Source: Tannerellaceae bacterium (GTDB lineage Bacteria > Bacteroidota > Bacteroidia > Bacteroidales > Tannerellaceae). Taken from it: a DNA stretch of 64,000 bases. The notes under the pieces are model-generated. The model was not told where the DNA came from, searched no databases, and worked only from the letters and a program-made list of their open reading frames with translations. The position numbers were made by a program, and so were the translations under genes. Shown piece by piece: positions 1-60,743 of the stretch (its first letter is position 1; each line of letters opens with the position of its first letter). The stretch spans positions 481-64,480 of the forward strand of contig JAJQEE010000112.1 in NCBI GenBank assembly GCA_021201865.1. Reading direction: 5' to 3'.

Positions 1-2696
1 GAAGAGGATGTTCAGCGCCTCGATGATGTGGTAGTAGTCGGATATGCCGTTGGAAATAAACGTTCTATTTCCGGTGCTGTAGAAAGAGTAAAGAAAGAGG
101 ATATGAATCAGGGGGTGATTACACAACCATTAGATGGATTGAAAGGGAAAGTAGCTGGTGTGGTCATCAGTAATGTCGGTGGAGATCCAACCGGTGATTT
201 AAATATCCGGGTTCGTGGTACTACCTCTCTTTCCGGTGGTAATGATCCACTGGTGATTATCGATGGCGTTTTTGGGGATATGGCTATGTTAAATGCGATC
301 TCCCCTTCGGATATTGAATCTATGACTATTCTGAAAGATGCCTCTGAAACAGCTCAGTATGGTAGCCGGGGAGCATCCGGAGTGATTGTTGTAACAACTG
401 CCCGGGGTACTGCTGGCTTTGCACAGGTTGAATACAACGGGACTTTTGGTGTTAATACGGTTTATAAGACGCTGGATATGCTGAGTGCAGCAGAGTGGCG
501 GGCTGGTGTTTCAGCTTTAGGTGTAAATGGAAATGATATGGGTGGGAATACAAACTGGTTTGATGAGATCACCCGGAATACAATCACCCATACACATAAT
601 TTATCGATCAGTAGCGGAAGTGAAATCTCAAACTTCAGAGCTTCCTTAGGGGTGATAGATCGTCCGGGATTGTTGATCAATTCAGGAACACGTAATTACA
701 CAGCTAAGATTGATGCCAGCCAGTATGCATTTGATAAAAAACTGAAATTAGATATCGGTATGTTCGGTTCCCGCCGTGAAGGAGACCATCAATATGATAT
801 TTATCGTACGTTTTATTCGGCAGCCTCCTATAATCCTACTTATCCTAACTACAAAAATGAAAATGGAGTCTGGGATGAGGATTTAACGGCCATAGAAGTA
901 TATAATCCATTAGGTATGATGGATGTAACCAACAAAAGGGTATCTTCTCACATAAATGCACATGCCAGCCTGAATTATGAAATTATAAAAGGATTAAATC
1001 TGTTAGGATTTGGTTCCTATACTTACTATTCATGGAACGACCGGTTATATATTCCCAATGATATCCAGCAGGGAGTTACTAACGGAAATGGACGGGCTTG
1101 TTTAATTAACCGGGAAAGAAGTGATCTGATGGGAAATCTTCAGTTGAATTTCAACCGGGATTTTGGTAAACATTCTATTAATGCACTTGCCTTACTGGAA
1201 GCCCAGAAACAATCTTATTTCGGATCCGAAAGTAATGCCCGTGGATTTGAAACCAATTATTTTACCTATAATAATATGAAGGCCGGAGCAAATGTGAAAT
1301 GGGGAGATGTGACTTCTGAAGCGAAAGATTATAATATCCTTTCTTATATGGCCCGTATCAATTATATGTATGATGGTAAATATGTAGTAACAGGAAATGT
1401 TCGCCGGGATGGTTCTTCTAAACTGGGTTCCAACAATAAATGGGGCTTCTTCCCTTCTGCTTCTGCGGCATGGATTGTATCCAATGAATCCTTTATGCAG
1501 GAACTATCACAGATTAGTACCCTGAAGTTACGGGTAGGCTATGGGGTGACCGGAAACCAGGATTTAATAGATCCCTATCAGTCCTTACAACTTATGGAAC
1601 CAAACGGAACTACATTAGTAGATGGATCACCTACTACCACTTTTGCCATTGCTTCTAACGCGAATCCGGATCTTCGTTGGGAGAAGAAATATACATTTGA
1701 TGTAGGATTGGATTTGAACATGTTTGATGCCCGTCTACGACTGACCGCAGACTACTATGCTTCCCGGACTAAAGATATGCTATATAAATATAAAGTTCCT
1801 GTGCCTCCGTTTGTTTATACGGACATGTTGGCCAATCTGGGTGAAATGTCTAATAACGGAGTGGAATTAGCAGTAAGTGGGGATATTGTCCGTACAAAAG
1901 ATTTCGGCTTCTCGATGGGGGTCAATCTGGCTTTCCAGAGAAATAAAGTCATTTCATTAAGCGGAACCTACATGGGTACGGAATTTACAACCAGTGAGTA
2001 TGTAGCCCTCTCCCGGGTCAATGCATCCGGCCTGACACAATATTCTGATGTAACTTATCTGACCGAAGGACAACCAGTCGGGATATTTTATATTCCTAAG
2101 TTTGTAGGTTTTGTAGATACAGACGGAAAAAAATGTATGATTTAGCAGATTTGAACGGAGATGGTTCAGTGGATCTTTCAGATACCGGTGGAGACCGTTA
2201 CATTGCAGGGCAGGCTATGCCAAAAACGTATTTAGGGGCCCATTTTAACTTCAGATATAAAAACTTTGATCTGACCACCCAGTTAAACGGAGCCTTTGGA
2301 CATCATATTTATAATGGAACCAGTATGACATTTAATAATATGGCTTTGTTCCCCACTTATAATGTGATGCAGGGAGCGATAGAAAATAGTATTTATGATA
2401 TAAAAATATCGGATTACTGGTTAGAAAAAGGAGATTACGTAAATATTGAATATATCACCTTAGGGTATAATTTACCGGTGAAAAAGTATAATATAAAATA
2501 TCTGAAAGAATTACGTATTGCATTCTCTGTAAATAATGTGGCAACTATCACCGGATATTCAGGAATGACACCGATGATCAACTCTGTGAATGTGGCGTCG
2601 TCTTCTGCTGTATCCAATAGTACGATCGGACTGGATGACAAACTGATTTATCCGTTAAATCGTACCTATTCTTTCACGCTGGGTGTAAAATTCTAA
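1..2696 (+). pseudogene. SusC-like TonB-dependent outer-membrane transporter. The 5' end lies outside the window. The frame is broken at A7 run 2127-2133, probably a 1-nt homopolymer undercall.
   Basis: Frame 1 is open from nt 1 (..LDDVVVVGYAVG..). ORFs 28-2145 and 2133-2696 are consecutive parts of one SusC/RagA-type protein, with plug motifs IIDG and YGSRGASGVIVV and a C-terminal ..YSFTLGVKF. Adding one A gives ..DTDGKKMYDLADLNGDGSVD... A SusD gene follows. Confidence 0.9.
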
Positions 2697-2769
2697 ATGT
2701 TAACTCAGACAGATCTGAATAAAGAATAAAAGAACTTTACTTCTATCTGTTATTAAATTATATATCTAT

Positions 2770-4455
2770 ATGAAAAAAATTATATTAGCCTCTATAGTGT
2801 TAGCTGGTTTTTTCTCCGGCTGTTCAGATTTTCTGGAAGAGAATCCTAAAAGTGGTATTCCTAAAGAAGATGCTTTTGAAAGTTCCACATTAGTCTATGT
2901 AAATACGGTTGCTACCATTTATTCCTCTTTCCAGAATTATCTCTATGGATCAACGGATAACATTCATTATTTACAGGAATTCAGTTCAGACTCCTGGATT
3001 CTGCCGGGACGTGGAGCGGACTGGGTAGATGGTGGAAAACATCAGGCTATGTTTCTCCATAGCTATGATGTGGGACATGGAACGGTTGCTACGACCTGGA
3101 ACCAATTATATGAGGTGATAGGTAAATGTAATACTTCTATTGATGACCTGCAGGAATTTATTGATGCCGGAGGAGAAGATTTCCTGTTGGAATATCAATA
3201 TGAAGTCCGTACGATCCGTGCTATTTTTTACTACTTCCTGGCGGATATATTTGGCCGGGTACCTTTAGTTACTTCTTCACAGACAACCATGTCAGAAGTT
3301 GCACAATCTTCCCGTAGTGAAGTCTACCAGTTTGCACTGGATGAACTGATTGAAGCCATCCCTTATCTTGCAAGTGCTAAATGCCAGAATTCCGGATTAT
3401 ATTACGGACGTATGACCAAAGCGGTTGGATATATGGCCATTGCTAAACTTGCTCTAAACAGTCCTGTTTTCACAAAAGATAACTGGACCGATGGTACCTT
3501 AGTGGGTGGAATAGATAAAGTGGCTCCCTGGGTAACAGAACAGGGAAAGAATATTCAGATCACATTAGATGGAACAACCCGCAATGCCTGGGAAACGGTC
3601 ATTTACTGCCAGCAAAAAATTGCGGAAGAAGGCTACTCATTACAACCTAATTTCATAGATAACTTTACAAAAACAAATGATAGCTCAGTGGAGAATATCT
3701 GGACGCAACCCAGTGATGGGACTACTTATCTGGTAGAAAATTACAACCAAAAGCGGACACTGCATTCCCAGCACGCAGGTGCTTATAATGTAGAAGGATG
3801 GAACGGAGCCTGTTCAACTGTTGAACAGATGTTGGTGTTTGGTTATGGTACAGAAAATCAGGATCCACGTCTGGATATGACCTTCTTCCATGGAGAAATA
3901 TCTGTTAACGGGCAAGTACTGCCTTCTGGATTAGGAGATGGTAAAAATTTGGTTTACAACCCTATGAGCGTAATAGTAAACTTTGAACCTACGGATGATG
4001 ATTATACGATGAAAATGGCGGGTGCCCGTTTGGCTAAATATGAAATTGACAATACGACCTCTGATGACCTATATCATAATAATGATAAAGTCTACTGGCG
4101 TTATGCGGATGCTCTCCTGATGGCTGCCGAAGCGAAAATCCGGTTAGGGCAAAGTGGAGACATGGAAGTAAATATGGTGAGAGATCGTGTGGGAGCCTCT
4201 TCAAAATCCGGTGTAACACTAAAAGATATTCTGGATGAAAGAATGATGGAATTCTCTTACGAAGGAATGAGAAGACAGGATCAGGTTCGCTTTGGTACTT
4301 ATGCTGAAGCAATTGCAGATAGATACGTAGGTGTTAAGCATGACCGTTCAGCAGGTGACTATCCGGACGATAAAACTGGTTATACTACTGTATTCCCTAT
4401 ACCACAGACCGTAATTCAGTTAAATACTAATTTAACTCAAAACGCCGGATATTAA
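2770..4455 (+). CDS. SusD/RagB-family outer-membrane lipoprotein (glycan-binding partner of the upstream SusC)
   Basis: 561 aa. Lipoprotein signal MKKIILASIVLAGFFSGCSDFLEE. The SusD-like N-terminus and length fit the family, and it lies directly downstream of SusC. Confidence 0.9.
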   Translation: MKKIILASIVLAGFFSGCSDFLEENPKSGIPKEDAFESSTLVYVNTVATIYSSFQNYLYGSTDNIHYLQEFSSDSWILPGRGADWVDGGKHQAMFLHSYDVGHGTVATTWNQLYEVIGKCNTSIDDLQEFIDAGGEDFLLEYQYEVRTIRAIFYYFLADIFGRVPLVTSSQTTMSEVAQSSRSEVYQFALDELIEAIPYLASAKCQNSGLYYGRMTKAVGYMAIAKLALNSPVFTKDNWTDGTLVGGIDKVAPWVTEQGKNIQITLDGTTRNAWETVIYCQQKIAEEGYSLQPNFIDNFTKTNDSSVENIWTQPSDGTTYLVENYNQKRTLHSQHAGAYNVEGWNGACSTVEQMLVFGYGTENQDPRLDMTFFHGEISVNGQVLPSGLGDGKNLVYNPMSVIVNFEPTDDDYTMKMAGARLAKYEIDNTTSDDLYHNNDKVYWRYADALLMAAEAKIRLGQSGDMEVNMVRDRVGASSKSGVTLKDILDERMMEFSYEGMRRQDQVRFGTYAEAIADRYVGVKHDRSAGDYPDDKTGYTTVFPIPQTVIQLNTNLTQNAGY

Positions 4456-4631
4456 TCCTTTTTCCCTTTGCATAATCGCTATTACTTAATTTTATGATTA
4501 TCTTTGGAATTGAATTTTCGGGCATTGATCATAGGATAGAGATCCTATGGTTTATGCCTGAAATATTCTGAGGAACACTAATGAAGTATTTTACGGATGT
4601 AGAATATAATTTTTTTATTAACTAATAATTT

Positions 4632-10015: not shown

Positions 10016-10214
10016 AAGTCCTGAAGGGACGGCATAGGTTAGCCTGGGACGCAAGTCCCAGGTACAGGGATATATAAATTGAGTGCTGAAAGTACGGTAC
10101 AATTTCAACAAACCGAATGTTTATAAAATAGGGGTGTACTTACAGCACACCCTCGGGGGTCTTTATACCTGGGACTTGCGTCCCAGGCTAATTTATACCG
10201 TCCCTTCAGGACTT
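10016..10214. repeat. 199-bp nested palindromic intergenic repeat (family C, copy 1), MITE/REP-like
   Basis: Arms are aagtcctgaagggacggcataggttagcctgggacgcaagtcccaggta and the reverse complement of tacctgggacttgcgtcccaggctaatttataccgtcccttcaggactt (3 mismatches). There is an inner stem gtgctgaaagtac / gtacttacagcac. A second copy lies at 22300-22510. Confidence 0.85.
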
Positions 10215-19203: not shown

Positions 19204-20463
19204 ATGAAAAAACTATTCTTTACATGGATGATAGCCGGAGCAGCTGTTTTATTTTCCGGTTGCAGTGATTCGGTGATTATCCAAACGGTTACCCATACAG
19301 TAAATAAACCTGTTTATCTGTCTGCAGAAGAATTCCGTAACTCGGTAAGAGTGACAGAGGAACCCAAAGAGATCAGGCAACAGGGGAAACTCTGTTTTTA
19401 CAAAGATTACCTGTATATCTCCGAACCGGAAGTGGGGATCCATATTATAGATAACCGGGATCCGTCCCATCCGGAACCGGTAGGGTTTATTGAATTATTG
19501 GGAAACGTGGATCTGGCCATAAAGAATGATAAACTATATGCCGACTCCTATATTGACCTGGTCTGGTTTGACATTACCTATCCGGCTAAACCGGAGCTGG
19601 CCGGCCGTCTGGAAAATGTATTTTTAGCCGCTTTCCCGGAAACAGGAAATTGGTTTGACTATGATGTGGATATCGATGAAGTATATGCAGGAAAGATAGA
19701 CCGGATTATCATCGGTTGGGAAACTGAAGAGGTAACCTATCAGGTGGAATATAGAAAATCGGATGGAGATCTCGTGATGGATGCAGGTGCGGGAGGTGCT
19801 AATCCGGGTAGTGGTATAAATGGGTCGATGTCCCGTTTCGGACTGTATCAGGATTATATGTATGTCATTCTGAATAATCAGATCGGTATCTTTCATATAG
19901 GGGGAGAAAAGCCAGTCAAAGTAGGTTCGAATGAATATGTAGGCCGGGAAATGGAAACGATTTTTCCCTATAAAGACTGTCTGTTTATCGGAACTCCCGG
20001 TGGATTGATTATCTATTCCGCGGCTAATCCGGAACTACTGGAATACCAGTCTTCCATCGGGCATGTCTATGGATGTGACCCGGTAGTGGTTGAAAATGAC
20101 CTGGCCTATGTGACCGTACGTTCCGGGAACCTCTGTGGGCAGAATGTGGATGAACTGATCGTTTTTGATGTAAGTAATGTCAAATATCCTAAACGGCTGG
20201 TGACTTACACGATGAAAAATCCCAAAGGGCTGGGAATTGATAAGGGCATCCTTTTCCTATGTGATGACGGACTGAAAATCTTTAAAGCAGATGATCCCCA
20301 GACATTAGTGAGTAATTTAATCGTTCACTATGCCGGGATGGATGGCTATGATGTGATACCTTATCAGGATGTACTGATCATGATTGCAGATGATGGGTTG
20401 TATCAATATGACTATTCCGATCGGGATAATATCCATCTGCTAAGTAAACTATCTACCAGGTAA
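19204..20463 (+). CDS. LVIVD-repeat (beta-propeller) lipoprotein
   Basis: 419 aa. Lipoprotein signal ..AAVLFSGCSD. Repeated LVIVD-type units (VGIHIIDNRDPSHPEPV, DLVWFDITYPAKPEL, ELIVFDVSNVKYPKRL, GLKIFKADDPQTL). Confidence 0.7.
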   Translation: MKKLFFTWMIAGAAVLFSGCSDSVIIQTVTHTVNKPVYLSAEEFRNSVRVTEEPKEIRQQGKLCFYKDYLYISEPEVGIHIIDNRDPSHPEPVGFIELLGNVDLAIKNDKLYADSYIDLVWFDITYPAKPELAGRLENVFLAAFPETGNWFDYDVDIDEVYAGKIDRIIIGWETEEVTYQVEYRKSDGDLVMDAGAGGANPGSGINGSMSRFGLYQDYMYVILNNQIGIFHIGGEKPVKVGSNEYVGREMETIFPYKDCLFIGTPGGLIIYSAANPELLEYQSSIGHVYGCDPVVVENDLAYVTVRSGNLCGQNVDELIVFDVSNVKYPKRLVTYTMKNPKGLGIDKGILFLCDDGLKIFKADDPQTLVSNLIVHYAGMDGYDVIPYQDVLIMIADDGLYQYDYSDRDNIHLLSKLSTR

Positions 20464-20519
20464 AAAAAGAAAAAAAGAAACAGCAAATAATGTTGTTTTT
20501 TTGTATGGTCAACCTTTTT

Positions 20520-20555
20520 CCGGCTTGCCTTATCTGAAAGGTGAGCCGGATTTTT
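20520..20555 (+). terminator. Possible terminator after the LVIVD gene
   Basis: Stem ccggct / agccgg with an 18-nt loop, followed by attttt. The stem is weak. Confidence 0.35.
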
Positions 20556-20564
20556 CTCCCTATA

Positions 20565-21089
20565 AATTTATTTTTAGGTATTCATCTATTCATATTTTTC
20601 GCAAACGGCTGTATTACAATGAATAAACTATGCACCCCTTCACGTTTCAGGTATTCATATGTATGCACCCCTGCCGGTCAGGTATTCATTCGGACAGAAT
20701 AAACAGACAGGCTCCGTAGGATAAGTATTTGTTTACTAATTACCCATCATTCATTACCCGCCTATATCTTTTTGCCAGTCCGCATACAAACTATTACTAC
20801 CCTCTACAGGGTAGCGCTGGTAAGATAGTATCTATTCATCAAAAAGTAGGCACCTACGAACGCCAGGGTGTAGAGGGTAGTAATAGTTTGTAGGTACCGT
20901 CTTTCCCTTTCCCGCTTGGTCTTTATCAAAAGATCAATTGATTATCCATTATTTTCCCTGCGGAATGAATACTTTATCCCAGGGTATTCATAAATATGAA
21001 TACCTGAAACGTGAAGGGGTGCATAGTTTATTCATTGTAATACAGCCGTTTGCGAAAAATATGAATAGATGAATACCTGAAAATAAATT
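20565..21089. repeat. 525-bp nested-palindrome non-coding element (family A/B, copy A)
   Basis: 20565-20660 and 20994-21089 are reverse complements at 95/96 positions. An inner perfect 24-bp stem (20785-20808 / 20869-20892) closes a 60-nt loop. GGTATTCA / TGAATACC occurs many times. There is no ORF >=60 aa. It is homologous to 59369-59881 in the opposite orientation, and the homology extends a little beyond the arms (~20554-21112). Confidence 0.9.
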
Positions 21090-21161
21090 GCAGGAGGAGG
21101 AAAAAGAAAAATTAATAGGCGGATATCCGGAATCCTTTACCCTGGTAGAAGACCGGGTACA

Positions 21162-21935
21162 TCAGATATTGGCGTTCCCATCTTCCCCGCAACGGATTAA
21201 ACTCATGTTGTAGTCCACCCCTACCCCCACTTTATCACTGATCTTGAATTCCATAGAACCTCCTACACTGGTGTGGTAATGGTAGGGATTTAAATAGAGA
21301 TGCAGATTCTCTTTCCCTTTATTATCATAGGCGGCATATTGGCCCCACATATTTATTTTTAACCAGTCTGTAGCCTGATAGCTGGTACTTCCTCCGACTC
21401 CCCCCACGAATCCGGGACTGGGATCGAACGGAGTCGCATAGCGTGCTGCAAAAGCAGATCCTCTGAATGTCCACTTCTCATCGCTCCACGATAACATAGG
21501 AGTTACACTTGTCAGACTCCCCGAACCGGGCCAGGTCATTTGAGTACCATTCATTAAAAAAGTTACCTGGTCATTCAGGGATTTGAAATAGGTTTCATCA
21601 AAGTCCAGTGCCATCGGAGATACATTCATCAGCATCGGAGTAAAGACATTAAAGAAAGGACGATAGGCTGTCGATAGAATCTGCATATCCATGGGACGTT
21701 CATCCAGATACATACTTAACTCCGGATTGTAATCAGGCATTTTCATATCTAATTTCACAGTGGAAGCCGGCGTATATGTTTTATAAGATAATTCGGGAAT
21801 ATGCAGTTCATAGGTCATGTATTTCGGGATCACAACCAATTTCCCTTCCTGGTTTAGCTGGAAAACCAAATCACTCTGAGCAAGCCCATAGAGAGCTCCC
21901 AGGGTCAGCAGTAAAGTTAAATAAATGGGCCTCAT
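21162..21935 (-). CDS. Hypothetical secreted/outer-membrane protein
   Basis: 257-aa ORF with signal peptide MRPIYLTLLLTLGALYGLAQS. The C-terminal half has a beta-strand-like alternating pattern. I recognise no family. Confidence 0.55.
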   Translation of the reverse strand: MRPIYLTLLLTLGALYGLAQSDLVFQLNQEGKLVVIPKYMTYELHIPELSYKTYTPASTVKLDMKMPDYNPELSMYLDERPMDMQILSTAYRPFFNVFTPMLMNVSPMALDFDETYFKSLNDQVTFLMNGTQMTWPGSGSLTSVTPMLSWSDEKWTFRGSAFAARYATPFDPSPGFVGGVGGSTSYQATDWLKINMWGQYAAYDNKGKENLHLYLNPYHYHTSVGGSMEFKISDKVGVGVDYNMSLIRCGEDGNANI

Positions 21936-22299: not shown

Positions 22300-22510
22300 C
22301 TTAAGTCCTGAAAGGACGTCATATAATAGCCTGGGACGCAAGTCTCAGGTCAGGTATCAGCAGTCAATGGAGTGCTGAAAGTACGACACTGCATATACCA
22401 ACCTATTGTTTTCATCAGATGGGGTGTACATACAGCACACCCCGGGTGGGGATTTCCCTACCTGGGACTTGCGTCCCAGGCTAATATATGCCGTCCCTGC
22501 GGGACTTAAG
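22300..22510. repeat. 211-bp nested palindromic intergenic repeat (family C, copy 2)
   Basis: Arms are cttaagtcctgaaaggacgtcatataatagcctgggacgcaagtctcaggt and the reverse complement of acctgggacttgcgtcccaggctaatatatgccgtccctgcgggacttaag. The inner stem gtgctgaaagtac / gtacatacagcac is conserved with copy 1 (10016-10214). Confidence 0.85.
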
Positions 22511-58508: not shown

Positions 58509-59279
58509 TCACCGGAACATCCAGCTAATGAAATCCGGTTCAGCAAAAGCATTGTTCCAGCTATCGTGGTTTACTCCCGGATATTCTTTGTAGTAAACTT
58601 CTTTTCCTGAATTTTTCAGTGTTTTATAGGCATCCCTTGACCAGATCACATCTACCGTATCATCTGCTGACCCATGATACATACGAAAAATGGTTTTCCC
58701 TTTGAAGTTTTTCAGTCTTTCGAGGTTGGCACCTCCACAAATGGGAGTGGCTGTTTTAAAAAGGTTTGGATAACGGCATACCAGATCAAACGAGCCGATC
58801 GCTCCCATGGAAAGTCCGGCAATATGGATTTGATCCGTGTCGACAATCCCTTTTTGAATATAACTATCTAATAGTTCCCTGACAGCATTCAGGGAAGGAG
58901 TAATAGCGACCGAATAGGGGAAATGTCGTTTTTGGCCTTCCGGATTTGGACGGGTGTAGGTAGACCAGTATAATGCTGAAGGACACTGAGGGGCTATGAT
59001 GATAGCCGGATAGGAAGATTGATTTTCATACGAGGCGAACATCTCTCCCCCGTGGGTCAACTGTCTTTCATTATCTTCCCCTCTTTCCCCTGCACCATGT
59101 AGGAACAGAATAACGGGATATGATTTATCCGGAGAATAATTCAGAGGATAAAGTATCCGGTAGTTCAGTTTATATCCGTCTTTAGCTGTAAACTGTTTTT
59201 TCAGGAAACTAACTTTGTCACCTGCAAAAGCTTGCGTTACAATAGAAAGGAAAAAGAATAAAGCGATTATTTTTTTCAT
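58509..59279 (-). CDS. Secreted alpha/beta-hydrolase (phospholipase/carboxylesterase-type esterase)
   Basis: 256 aa. Signal peptide MKKIIALFFFLSIVTQAFA, ..VILFLHGAGERG.., nucleophile elbow GLSMG, and ..HGSADDTV.., ..NHDSW... Confidence 0.75.
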   Translation of the reverse strand: MKKIIALFFFLSIVTQAFAGDKVSFLKKQFTAKDGYKLNYRILYPLNYSPDKSYPVILFLHGAGERGEDNERQLTHGGEMFASYENQSSYPAIIIAPQCPSALYWSTYTRPNPEGQKRHFPYSVAITPSLNAVRELLDSYIQKGIVDTDQIHIAGLSMGAIGSFDLVCRYPNLFKTATPICGGANLERLKNFKGKTIFRMYHGSADDTVDVIWSRDAYKTLKNSGKEVYYKEYPGVNHDSWNNAFAEPDFISWMFR

Positions 59280-59368
59280 GGTTTATTAATTATATAAATT
59301 CTTTATTCAAAGATAGGGATCTATTTTAGAATGGGGATAAAAAATCTCCTGTTTTCTTCCTGGAACTT

Positions 59369-59881
59369 TTTTTAGGTATTCACCTATTCACCTTTTGGGT
59401 AAGTGGCTGATCATGAATCAGTAACGGTGCATACCTGGCTGTTTTAGGTATTCACCTCGGTGAATACCCCAGGGCAGAAGTATTCACCTTGCAGGGAGAG
59501 TATAGGATAATAAAGGGACATTTTGGTGAATAGTAAAGGCTCAAGTCTCAGGGGATGCCCACAAACTATTGCTACCCTCTACACCCTGGCGTCCGTAGCC
59601 GCCTACTTTATTGGTGAATAGATACTATCTTACCGGCGCTACCCTGTAGAGGGTAGCAATAGTTTGTGGGTGGGGCGGAAAAAAGAGGTATGCGGGTAGT
59701 GAATGATGATAGGGGATTCAATGAATACTTTCCCTATGGGAAAACCTTTCTTTGTCCTGAAAAGTGAATATCTTACTGGTAGGTATTCACCCAGGTGAAT
59801 ACCTAAAACAGCCAGGTATGCACCGCTACTGATTCATGATCAGTCACTTATCCAAAAGGTGAATAGGTGAATACCTAAAAA
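59369..59881. repeat. 513-bp nested-palindrome non-coding element (family A/B, copy B), inverted relative to copy A
   Basis: 59369-59456 and 59794-59881 are reverse complements at 85/88 positions. An inner perfect 26-bp stem (59558-59583 / 59645-59670) closes a loop that is the reverse complement of copy A's loop at 54/60 positions. There are many GGTATTCACC / GGTGAATACC motifs and no ORF >=60 aa. Homology to copy A extends to ~59345-59899. Confidence 0.9.
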
Positions 59882-59937
59882 TAAATTTATAGGGGGGAGA
59901 TTAACGAGAAAGAGGATATCCTAAAAGTCTATCTCTG

Positions 59938-60050: not shown

Positions 60051-60743
60051 TTATTTGAACTCTTTTAATAACCGGGTCAATTGTTTTACACCTTCGGAAG
60101 CACCTGCCTGAATGAAGTGTATATCTTTCCGGTATGTGTTTACCTCCTTCGGATCGATCAGGTAGATGGGTTGTCCCCGGCGAACGTAGTTTAATAATCC
60201 GGCTGCGGGATATACATTCAGGGAAGTTCCTATGACTACCACAATGTCTGATTGTTCCATTAACCGGATGGCCGGATCGATCATAGGAACAGCTTCACCG
60301 AACCAGACAATAAAAGGGCGTAGCTGATCTCCTTTAGGATCCGTATCGCCTATATGAAGTTCCGGATTTTCCGGAGAGATGTCGAAAGGAGTGCCCGGAT
60401 CTTTGACAGAACAGGATTTCATTAATTCTCCATGTAGATGCAGCACCTTCGAACTACCCGCTCTTTCATGCAGGTTGTCTACATTCTGGGTAATGATCTC
60501 TACATCGAACTCTTTTTCCAAAGCGGCTAATCCATAATGTCCTTCATTGGGTTCACAGGTTAGTAGTTGCCGGCGCCGTTGATTGTAGAATTCGAGCACT
60601 AATTGTGGGTTGGCAGCAAATGCTTCCGGAGTAGCTACTTCTTCTACCCGGTACTTTTCCCACAGGCCATCTGAATCCCGGAAGGTGGAGATCCCGCTTT
60701 CCGCACTCATGCCTGCACCTGTTAAAACAACTAATTTTTTCAT
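60051..60743 (-). CDS. cobB: Sir2-family NAD-dependent protein deacylase (CobB/NpdA-like)
   Basis: 230 aa. GAGMSAESGISTFRD, QNVDNLHERAG, HLHGE, and GTSLNVYPAAGL. This is standalone, housekeeping-type architecture. Confidence 0.85.
   Translation of the reverse strand: MKKLVVLTGAGMSAESGISTFRDSDGLWEKYRVEEVATPEAFAANPQLVLEFYNQRRRQLLTCEPNEGHYGLAALEKEFDVEIITQNVDNLHERAGSSKVLHLHGELMKSCSVKDPGTPFDISPENPELHIGDTDPKGDQLRPFIVWFGEAVPMIDPAIRLMEQSDIVVVIGTSLNVYPAAGLLNYVRRGQPIYLIDPKEVNTYRKDIHFIQAGASEGVKQLTRLLKEFK

Follow-up and report, generated by a model that had tools for sequence, protein, structure and literature searches.

Conserved DNA sites, rather than a conserved hairpin, at the core of a MITE-like element from a Tannerellaceae genome

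A 64,000-nucleotide stretch of DNA from a Tannerellaceae bacterium (contig JAJQEE010000112.1, positions 481 to 64,480 of the forward strand; hereafter the window) carries two copies of a non-coding palindromic element of about 545 bp, designated A and B, which lie in opposite orientations 38 kb apart and have a long, perfectly paired core hairpin at their centre. The question raised by this locus is whether the core is kept for the structure that it can form, for the sequence of its loop, as the original prediction proposed, or for some other property. The A/B core hairpin is the central module of a gene-less element resembling MITEs (miniature inverted-repeat transposable elements), and a comparison of 13 copies shows that the sites within the core are conserved, whereas the hairpin is not. 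On balance, the core is probably a double-stranded DNA site, a candidate origin or operator at which proteins encoded by the element family would act. The coordinates of all features are collected in Table 1.

The stems of both cores are exact, as had been predicted, with 24 of 24 bp paired in A and 26 of 26 bp in B. The predicted compensatory replacement of A:T by G:C is also present (stem position 12), but two pairs are changed instead of one, since the 24 bp shared by the stems differ at two positions, each altered on both arms, and the basal pair (position 1) is T:A in A and C:G in B. The segments between the two boxes (the "loop"; 60 nt in A and 61 nt in B) are identical in 55 of 61 aligned columns when B is reverse-complemented, with 5 substitutions and 1 indel, which upholds the high identity claimed earlier and replaces the count of 54 of 60; in the same orientation the loops fail to align (score -6 vs +48 for the reverse complement). 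The local hairpin proposed at the stem tip was found in A as the palindrome TACCCTCTACAGGGTA, where forward and reverse box matches overlap at 20798 and 20803, and has the counterpart TACCCTGTAGAGGGTA in B. The 12-mer box CTACCCTCTACA occurs four times in the window, every time in the core stems, against 0.09 occurrences expected, and the cores folded as DNA reach z = -6.9 to -9.0 vs dinucleotide shuffles, so that the hairpin is well outside what chance would produce. The loop had further been described as unpaired and as the most conserved part of the element, neither of which holds. Predicted folds place a few extra pairs within the long stem, so that the loop is partly paired, and the A-B identity is 90.2% in the loop and 91.7% in the stem (56–64% in the interior flanks and 64–68% in the terminal inverted repeats (TIRs)), while across the family the inter-box segment is variable except for CCTGGC and rCCTACyT.

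Relatives of the element were retrieved with a pattern of the TIR ends (TYAGGTATTCAYCTATTCAY), which yielded four contigs of a Tannerellaceae metagenome-assembled genome (MAG) and 16 metagenome loci (numbered below with the prefix L); the window itself is not among the matches of this pattern. After removal of duplicates and isolated chance matches, 13 distinct cores were retained, namely A, B and 11 others including L031. The isolated matches, taken as chance because they have neither a second site nor a core, are L006, L007, L012, L014 and L021. The terminus TTCTCTCCCTGTAAATTTATTTTT-AGGTATTCAYCTATTCAYCTTTT is common to all 13 distinct copies, and the corresponding terminus of A (TTCTCYCC...AAATTTATTTTT-AGGTATTCAYCTATTCAY) is likewise shared by all family copies. 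The order of the family core is AAACTATyG, CTACCCTCTACACCCTGG, a variable segment containing rCCTACyT, CTACCCTCTACACCCTAC and GGATAGTTT. Invariant across the family are the boxes and the terminal ~25 nt, but not the inter-box loop. The complete gene-less copies (n = 8) measure 487–630 bp as extracted, and their longest open reading frames of 20–51 aa are not conserved (35 aa in element A); tblastn of these copies detected no remnant of HU or helicase genes. Every complete copy has a core, as the original prediction requires. The core pattern CTACCCTCTACA-N(50-75)-TGTAGAGGGTAG gave no match in collections of genomes and viral contigs from which the window's own genome is absent. In the viral contigs the direct-box pattern gave no match and the TIR pattern a single chance match (L040); these scans thus show no sign of a link to phages.

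The boxes are present in 13 of the 13 distinct copies, whether they can pair or not. In nine of them the boxes are direct repeats 66–67 nt apart, including the complete copies L010, L013, L017, L023, L025 and L027, and the second box is inverted only in A, B, L022 and L031. The outer repeat AAACTAT/ATAGTTT is the sole part of the stem retained across the family, and the second rCCTACyT site alternates between direct and inverted orientation among copies. The suggestion of sequence-specific recognition is thus partly supported, by boxes that are kept regardless of pairing, whereas the emphasis of the original prediction on the loop and on compensation is not.

L022 and L031 are units of about 3 kb (L022, 1190–4190; L031, 2517–5535), which contain A/B-type TIRs, the core and only two genes, one encoding an HU-HIG protein and the other a primase-helicase of the BT4734 family. 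In both units the core is located 46 nt upstream of the HU-HIG/primase-helicase operon, and no transposase or integrase domain was detected in them with Pfam, NCBIfam or PHROGs. The L022 locus recurs at 99.9% identity in the Logan samples SRR15221340 and SRR15221351 (also L042/L043), which additionally contain contigs 99.9–100% identical to the window. The AlphaFold model of the helicase (pLDDT 82.9) has as its best structural match the PriRep1-DNA complex of a Staphylococcus aureus pathogenicity island (SaPI; 7PDS; E 5e-16, TM 0.63 on target), followed by the primase-helicases of NrS-1, African swine fever virus and poxviruses (D5/E5). Residues 619–692 (DUF3874) are modelled as a helix/strand domain, which we read from the model as winged-helix-like. 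The BT4734-like_N domain belongs to an outlying family of archaeo-eukaryotic primases (AEP) (PMC5862659, PMC11724360), and HU-HIG genes were described in 2017 as almost entirely devoid of conserved operonic linkage (PMC5499826).

A DNA origin or operator site is likelier than a structured RNA, because the hairpin is lineage-specific and the gene-bearing relatives carry only primase-helicase and HU-like genes. The module is a cluster of short sites, on which the element's proteins are predicted to assemble. It comprises two CTACCCTCTACA(CCCT) boxes and the framing short inverted repeat AAACTAT/ATAGTTT, and its centre, which is slightly richer in A+T, holds one or two sites like those of the TIRs (GCCTACyT, TGAATAG). 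Its most likely role would be that of a replication origin for the primase-helicase, and it may at the same time serve the HU-HIG/helicase operon as operator or promoter region. The helicase may contact it through its putative C-terminal winged-helix-like domain, HU-HIG would be the second protein at the core, and a requirement in cis would explain why the gene-less copies keep the module. The long perfect stem is specific to a lineage (A, B, L022 and L031); it may have come about by re-templating, in which template switching or gene conversion inside a quasi-palindrome copies one arm onto the other, and such a process would also produce "compensated" changes. In the second box of the window type, GCG-CTACCCT precedes an exact reverse complement of arm 1, which is the trace expected of re-templating, and homogenisation of the palindrome arms would thus take place at the DNA level.

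Several observations weigh against an origin or operator. The centre of the module is only mildly A+T-rich (37–43% G+C in A and B and 33–57% across copies, vs 43.5% in the window). The SaPI origin is located downstream of rep, whereas the core is upstream of the operon, and the opposed iterons, which are said to be a conserved feature of SaPI origins, are missing from the direct-repeat cores. As the two gene-bearing copies are palindromic, a hairpin or cruciform may matter in active elements, and the promoter-like sequence TAACTTTA before the core in L022 and L031 means that the core is possibly transcribed as an mRNA leader. A search of plasmids with the helicase protein gave 18 records, none of them small, the best-covered ones being 40–420 kb in size.

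Recognition by shape is the first alternative to a double-stranded site, and it is considered unlikely. The core would then act as a cruciform or single-stranded hairpin, recognised by an HU-like protein, for example, or giving the primase-helicase a signal for priming or strand transfer. HU-family proteins favour bent and four-way DNA, the cores of the gene-bearing L022 and L031 are the most symmetric of all (33-nt arms, 85–91% complementary), and long palindromes lie beside other BT4734-family genes, such as that of L041. Against this, the nine distinct copies with direct boxes cannot form the hairpin and yet keep the boxes at equal spacing. In addition, the perfect stems of 24–26 bp in A and B are not clearly better matched than the elements' own TIRs (92–96%); at the TIR mismatch rates (4–8%), the calculated probability that a stem of this length is free of mismatches is ~0.14–0.35, and the perfect stems are therefore not exceptional.

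Somewhat less probable again is a structured RNA, in which the core is transcribed, for instance in the 5' leader of the HU/primase-helicase mRNA or to give a small RNA, and the hairpin acts in stability, translation control or antisense regulation. The predicted fold is strong (z = -21.7 for the whole element folded as RNA), two compensated pairs separate the stems, and the short outer stem covaries at pair 24/112 (CG 4, UA 4, UG 4). In L022 and L031 the above TAACTTTA, a relaxed -7 box of the Bacteroidetes type, directly precedes the core and is 171 nt upstream of the HU ATG; no exact TAnnTTTG lies upstream of HU, and a scan for sigma-70 promoters is uninformative for Bacteroidota. Across the 13 family members, by contrast, RNAalifold gives a consensus of 6 pairs with -0.19 kcal/mol, 8–9 of the 13 aligned sequences have no pairing at the C/G columns of the inner stem, and the three direct-type cores folded (L023, L027 and L017; four strand folds) do not surpass shuffled sequences (z = -0.18 to +0.83). 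Rfam yielded no match on A and B at the gathering score, and permissive thresholds gave only microRNA-like hairpin noise of 13–22 bits vs cut-offs of 43–95, and the wobble pairs of the outer stem occur on both strands (4 and 2 by our own reading), singling out neither. The compensation is not special to the core but extends to the TIRs, where A and B differ symmetrically at 30 positions while the arms of each element stay matched. The symmetry of the palindrome is hence maintained throughout the element and not in the core alone, and the compensated core pairs say little about selection on the stem.

It is improbable, and slightly more so than an RNA function, that the core is a functionless relic of a parent regulatory region, with the similarity of A and B due to gene conversion or recombination within one genome. 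The modules have separate histories, as the right TIR of B is 86–89% identical to L027, while the core of B is 72% identical to L027 and 90% to A. Similarly, L009 and L010 from one MAG are identical over ~190 nt of core, with different flanks and diverged TIRs. The core had been held to be the best conserved part of the element, which is true of three close pairs, i.e. A and B (core 90%, best TIR arm 70%), L022 and L031, and L009 and L010, but not of the family as a whole, where the mean identity over all 45 pairs of complete copies is 68.0% for the core vs 67.0% for the TIRs and the core is the higher in 24 of the 45. A relic is difficult to reconcile with a core retained by every complete copy and with invariant boxes. 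It also fits poorly with L022 and L031, which come from different samples and whose core (81.7%), like the leader between it and HU (80.4%), is as conserved as the HU gene (80.8%) and the helicase gene (79.1%), some 20 points above the TIRs (60–61%).

A site at which a recombinase flips or resolves the 60-nt segment between inverted boxes is very improbable. The palindromic boxes (TACCCTC-TA-CAGGGTA) do look like short dyad sites and the interior is flipped between the TIRs at one orthologous locus, but the inter-box segment is equally oriented relative to the interior flanks (A and B) and to the HU gene (L022 and L031), no recombinase gene is found in or beside the gene-bearing copies, and recombination between boxes that are mostly direct repeats would delete the segment and not invert it.

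The orthologous site just mentioned is represented by L011 (4330–4900) and L025 (6800–7480), which share the flank and one TIR at ~92% (alignment estimate); the interior including the core is inverted, and the other TIR of L011 is mostly lost. The inverted interior is consistent with flipping through recombination between TIR arms. A copy in L023 is 98.5% identical over 328 nt to one in L020 and L026 with differing flanks, the TIR and core segment of L023 at 3389–3716 matching L020 at 4139–4466 and L026 at 328–655. The L020/L026 copy has no second TIR, its outermost 10 nt are altered, and it resembles a recently copied, truncated member. The flanks of 10 complete copies contain no consistent direct repeat, a possible 4-nt repeat, TACT in L025 and TATT in L010, not being general.

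Elements A and B align from end to end, A in the plus and B in the minus orientation. Their TIRs are arrays of the site AGGTATTCAY, of which 10 of the 10 occurrences in the window lie inside A or B (0.32 expected). The last base of this site is T in five of five sites of A (20576–21078) and C in five of five sites of B (59374–59876), a concerted change within each element that suggests two specificity subfamilies. In this Bacteroidota chromosome each element is located in an intergenic region, A between the convergent genes at 19204–20463 (+) and 21162–21935 (-) and B between an esterase gene (58509–59279, -) and a Sir2 gene (60051–60743, -). The neighbours include a SusC-type receptor, GH97, HflX and Sir2, and one flanking protein has its best named relatives in Parabacteroides (56–58% identity). 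The homology between B and L027 stops at 59901, ~25 nt beyond the terminal AGG, and public short-read contigs 99.9–100% identical to the window break off within the TIRs (20605 and 59396/59397). The Logan runs SRR15221321, SRR15221340 and SRR15221351 contain the organism. The gene upstream of element A has a terminator-like hairpin (TCCGGCTTGCCTT / AAGGTGAGCCGGA; 20519–20550), which stops 5 nt short of the element. In an 81%-identical relative (L036/L037) the element is also present downstream of the orthologous gene, the contig ending inside the element; by an estimate from reading the sequence, ~85 nt separate the equivalent terminator hairpin from the element start in L037. A 59%-identical relative (L038) lacks the element, but its synteny differs. 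The case for mobility rests on the dispersed copies, because the loci compared include no pair of filled and empty sites.

The window contains a second family of palindromic repeats of ~200 nt (10017–10213 and 22304–22506), the copies of which are ~84% identical. Both arms are full-length matches of Rfam Acido-Lenti-1 (RF01687; 54–61 bits, cut-off 37), inverted around a centre with a hairpin of its own. Acido-Lenti-1 thus acts in the window like the TIR of a MITE-like element, and Bacteroidota lies outside the phyla in the family name.

More distant BT4734-family genes (~40% identity; Bacteroides and others) have the same design in other sequences, with a palindromic or iterated region upstream near the gene in L028, L029, L030, L033, L034 and L041. 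In L030 a palindromic cluster is located between the divergent HU-HIG and helicase genes, and its TIR repeats the design of A and B, with an 8-mer in tandem at the tip and one more copy, inverted, ~40 nt inward. TIRs were not detected in L033, L034 and L028, in spite of their upstream palindromes, and many BT4734 homologues are found on contigs of just 2.4–3.5 kb. BT4734-family genes often head the capsule loci of Bacteroidales, and L028 is an example, as its BT4734-family gene (355–2445) is directly upstream of a capsule-export locus (Poly_export, Wzz/GNVR and CpsB).

Table 1. Coordinates of elements A and B in the window and of the features of related loci (L-prefixed; positions of each locus)
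Feature	Position	Strand	Description
Element A	20556–21098	- (box-forward)	complete non-coding MITE-like element; full-length alignment with reverse-complemented B
Left TIR of A	20565–20691	.	127 nt; 91% complementary to 20963–21089; three AGGTATTCAT sites and one ATCTATTCAT
Right TIR of A	20963–21089	.	127-nt arm
Core of A	20785–20892	-	arms 20785–20808 and 20869–20892; 24-bp perfect stem
Each arm of core A			outer repeat ACAAACTATTA and 12-mer box CTACCCTCTACA
Local palindromic box of A, TACCCTCTACAGGGTA	20798–20813	.	TACCCT-CTAC-AGGGTA; two 6-nt half-sites in inverted order
Inter-box segment of A	20809–20868	-	60 nt
TIR-type site ATCTATTCAT within A loop	20830–20839
AGTAGGCA within A loop	20845–20852		reverse complement of family motif TGCCTACT; position read from sequence
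Element B	59350–59900	+ (box-forward)	second complete copy
Left TIR of B	59369–59468	.	100 nt; 96% complementary to 59782–59881
Right TIR of B	59782–59881	.	100-nt arm; 86–89% identical to one L027 arm
Core of B	59558–59670	+	arms 59558–59583 and 59645–59670; 26-bp perfect stem
Inter-box segment of B	59584–59644	+	61 nt; GCCTACTT at 59601–59608, GGTGAATAG at 59613–59621
Local palindrome of B, TACCCTGTAGAGGGTA	59640–59655		starts at 3' end of B inter-box segment
L022 TIRs	1204–1308 and 4058–4174
L022 primase-helicase gene	1319–3397	-	692 aa; BT4734-like_N, VapE-like and DUF3874 domains
L022 HU-HIG gene	3431–3820	-	129 aa
L022 core	3867–3981		46 nt upstream of HU start
L031 core; HU-HIG gene	2743–2857; 2904–3293		order: TIR, core, HU-HIG, frameshifted helicase gene, second TIR
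L029	3659–6128		24-nt TIRs; iterated palindrome ACACCCGGGTGTACA upstream
L030	3090–6180		28-nt TIRs of tandem ATCCTTCA; inverted copy ~40 nt inside
L033; L034	3756–3803; 3738–3863		palindromic or iterated region next to gene
L041 (Bacteroides sp.)	2021–2108		between HU and BT4734 gene; palindrome, 42-nt arms (93%)

The element shares features with several known systems. The Rep protein of SaPIs is a self-loading initiator, whose C-terminal winged-helix domain reads iterons flanking an A+T-rich centre next to rep (PMC9371898). The helicase model of the element matches PriRep1 best, and the hairpin-type core likewise has opposed boxes around a centre and adjoins the operon. The two systems differ in that the N-terminal primase domain of the element is of the BT4734-like AEP family, that its boxes are 12–19 nt in length and direct repeats in most copies, and that it is bounded by long TIRs and, unlike SaPIs, has no integrase, no packaging genes and no dependence on phages. 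Like bacterial MITEs such as those of the Correia/ERIC type, the element is small and non-coding, has TIRs at its ends, occurs between genes in several dispersed copies, breaks short-read assemblies and has longer relatives with the same ends; BrickBuilt MITEs of Porphyromonas gingivalis appear as a citation in PMC5771137. The element deviates from them in its unusually long TIRs (100–127 nt), which are built of 4–5 repeated sites, in its conserved central module, in a gene-bearing partner without a recognisable transposase and in the lack of a consistent target-site duplication in the flanks of the 10 copies.

Two further comparisons concern replication initiators. In iteron plasmids and in phage P4 (alpha with ori/crr), one initiator reads short repeats in both orientations and in several clusters, and in iteron plasmids inverted copies of the site near the initiator gene serve as operator. 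These are free replicons, whereas the element is a chromosomal repeat, in which the clusters make up the centre and the inverted ends. The inverted terminal repeats of parvoviruses are terminal palindromes with repeated Rep sites, read by an initiator with a superfamily 3 helicase, and have middle segments that flip. This is an analogy only, as parvoviral Rep is an HUH nuclease, while BT4734-like_N is an AEP primase domain (PMC5862659, PMC11724360), and neither nicking nor hairpinned ends are evidenced for the element.

No description of this element family, or of a TIR-bounded BT4734/HU-HIG unit, was found in the literature searched. A and B might, quite tentatively, belong as non-autonomous members to a class of Bacteroidales mobile elements not described before, which would copy themselves from the core as origin and spread without a canonical transposase or integrase; this is a doubtful proposal. 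Members of such a class would be units of ~3 kb with long, site-studded inverted repeats and only HU-HIG and BT4734/BF3469-family genes.

In a DNA palindrome of this kind, "compensatory" changes are no evidence for RNA structure where the whole element keeps its arms symmetric. Few gene families of gut Bacteroidales are as expanded as the BT4734/BF3469-family primase-helicases and the HU-HIG proteins, neither of which has a known role. The present finding links both genes in one operon, which is bounded by TIRs, contains a conserved central site cluster and has gene-less miniature offshoots. If the core is an origin or operator, the BT4734/HU-HIG gene pair gains a testable function with defined DNA substrates, namely the 108-nt core and the AGGTATTCAY arrays, and the element may be a repeat that spreads by means of a replication initiator and not a transposase. 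Should A and B indeed belong to the tentative class of self-copying elements, this would provide a function for the BT4734 and HU-HIG genes, which are very abundant in gut Bacteroidales and still lack an explanation.

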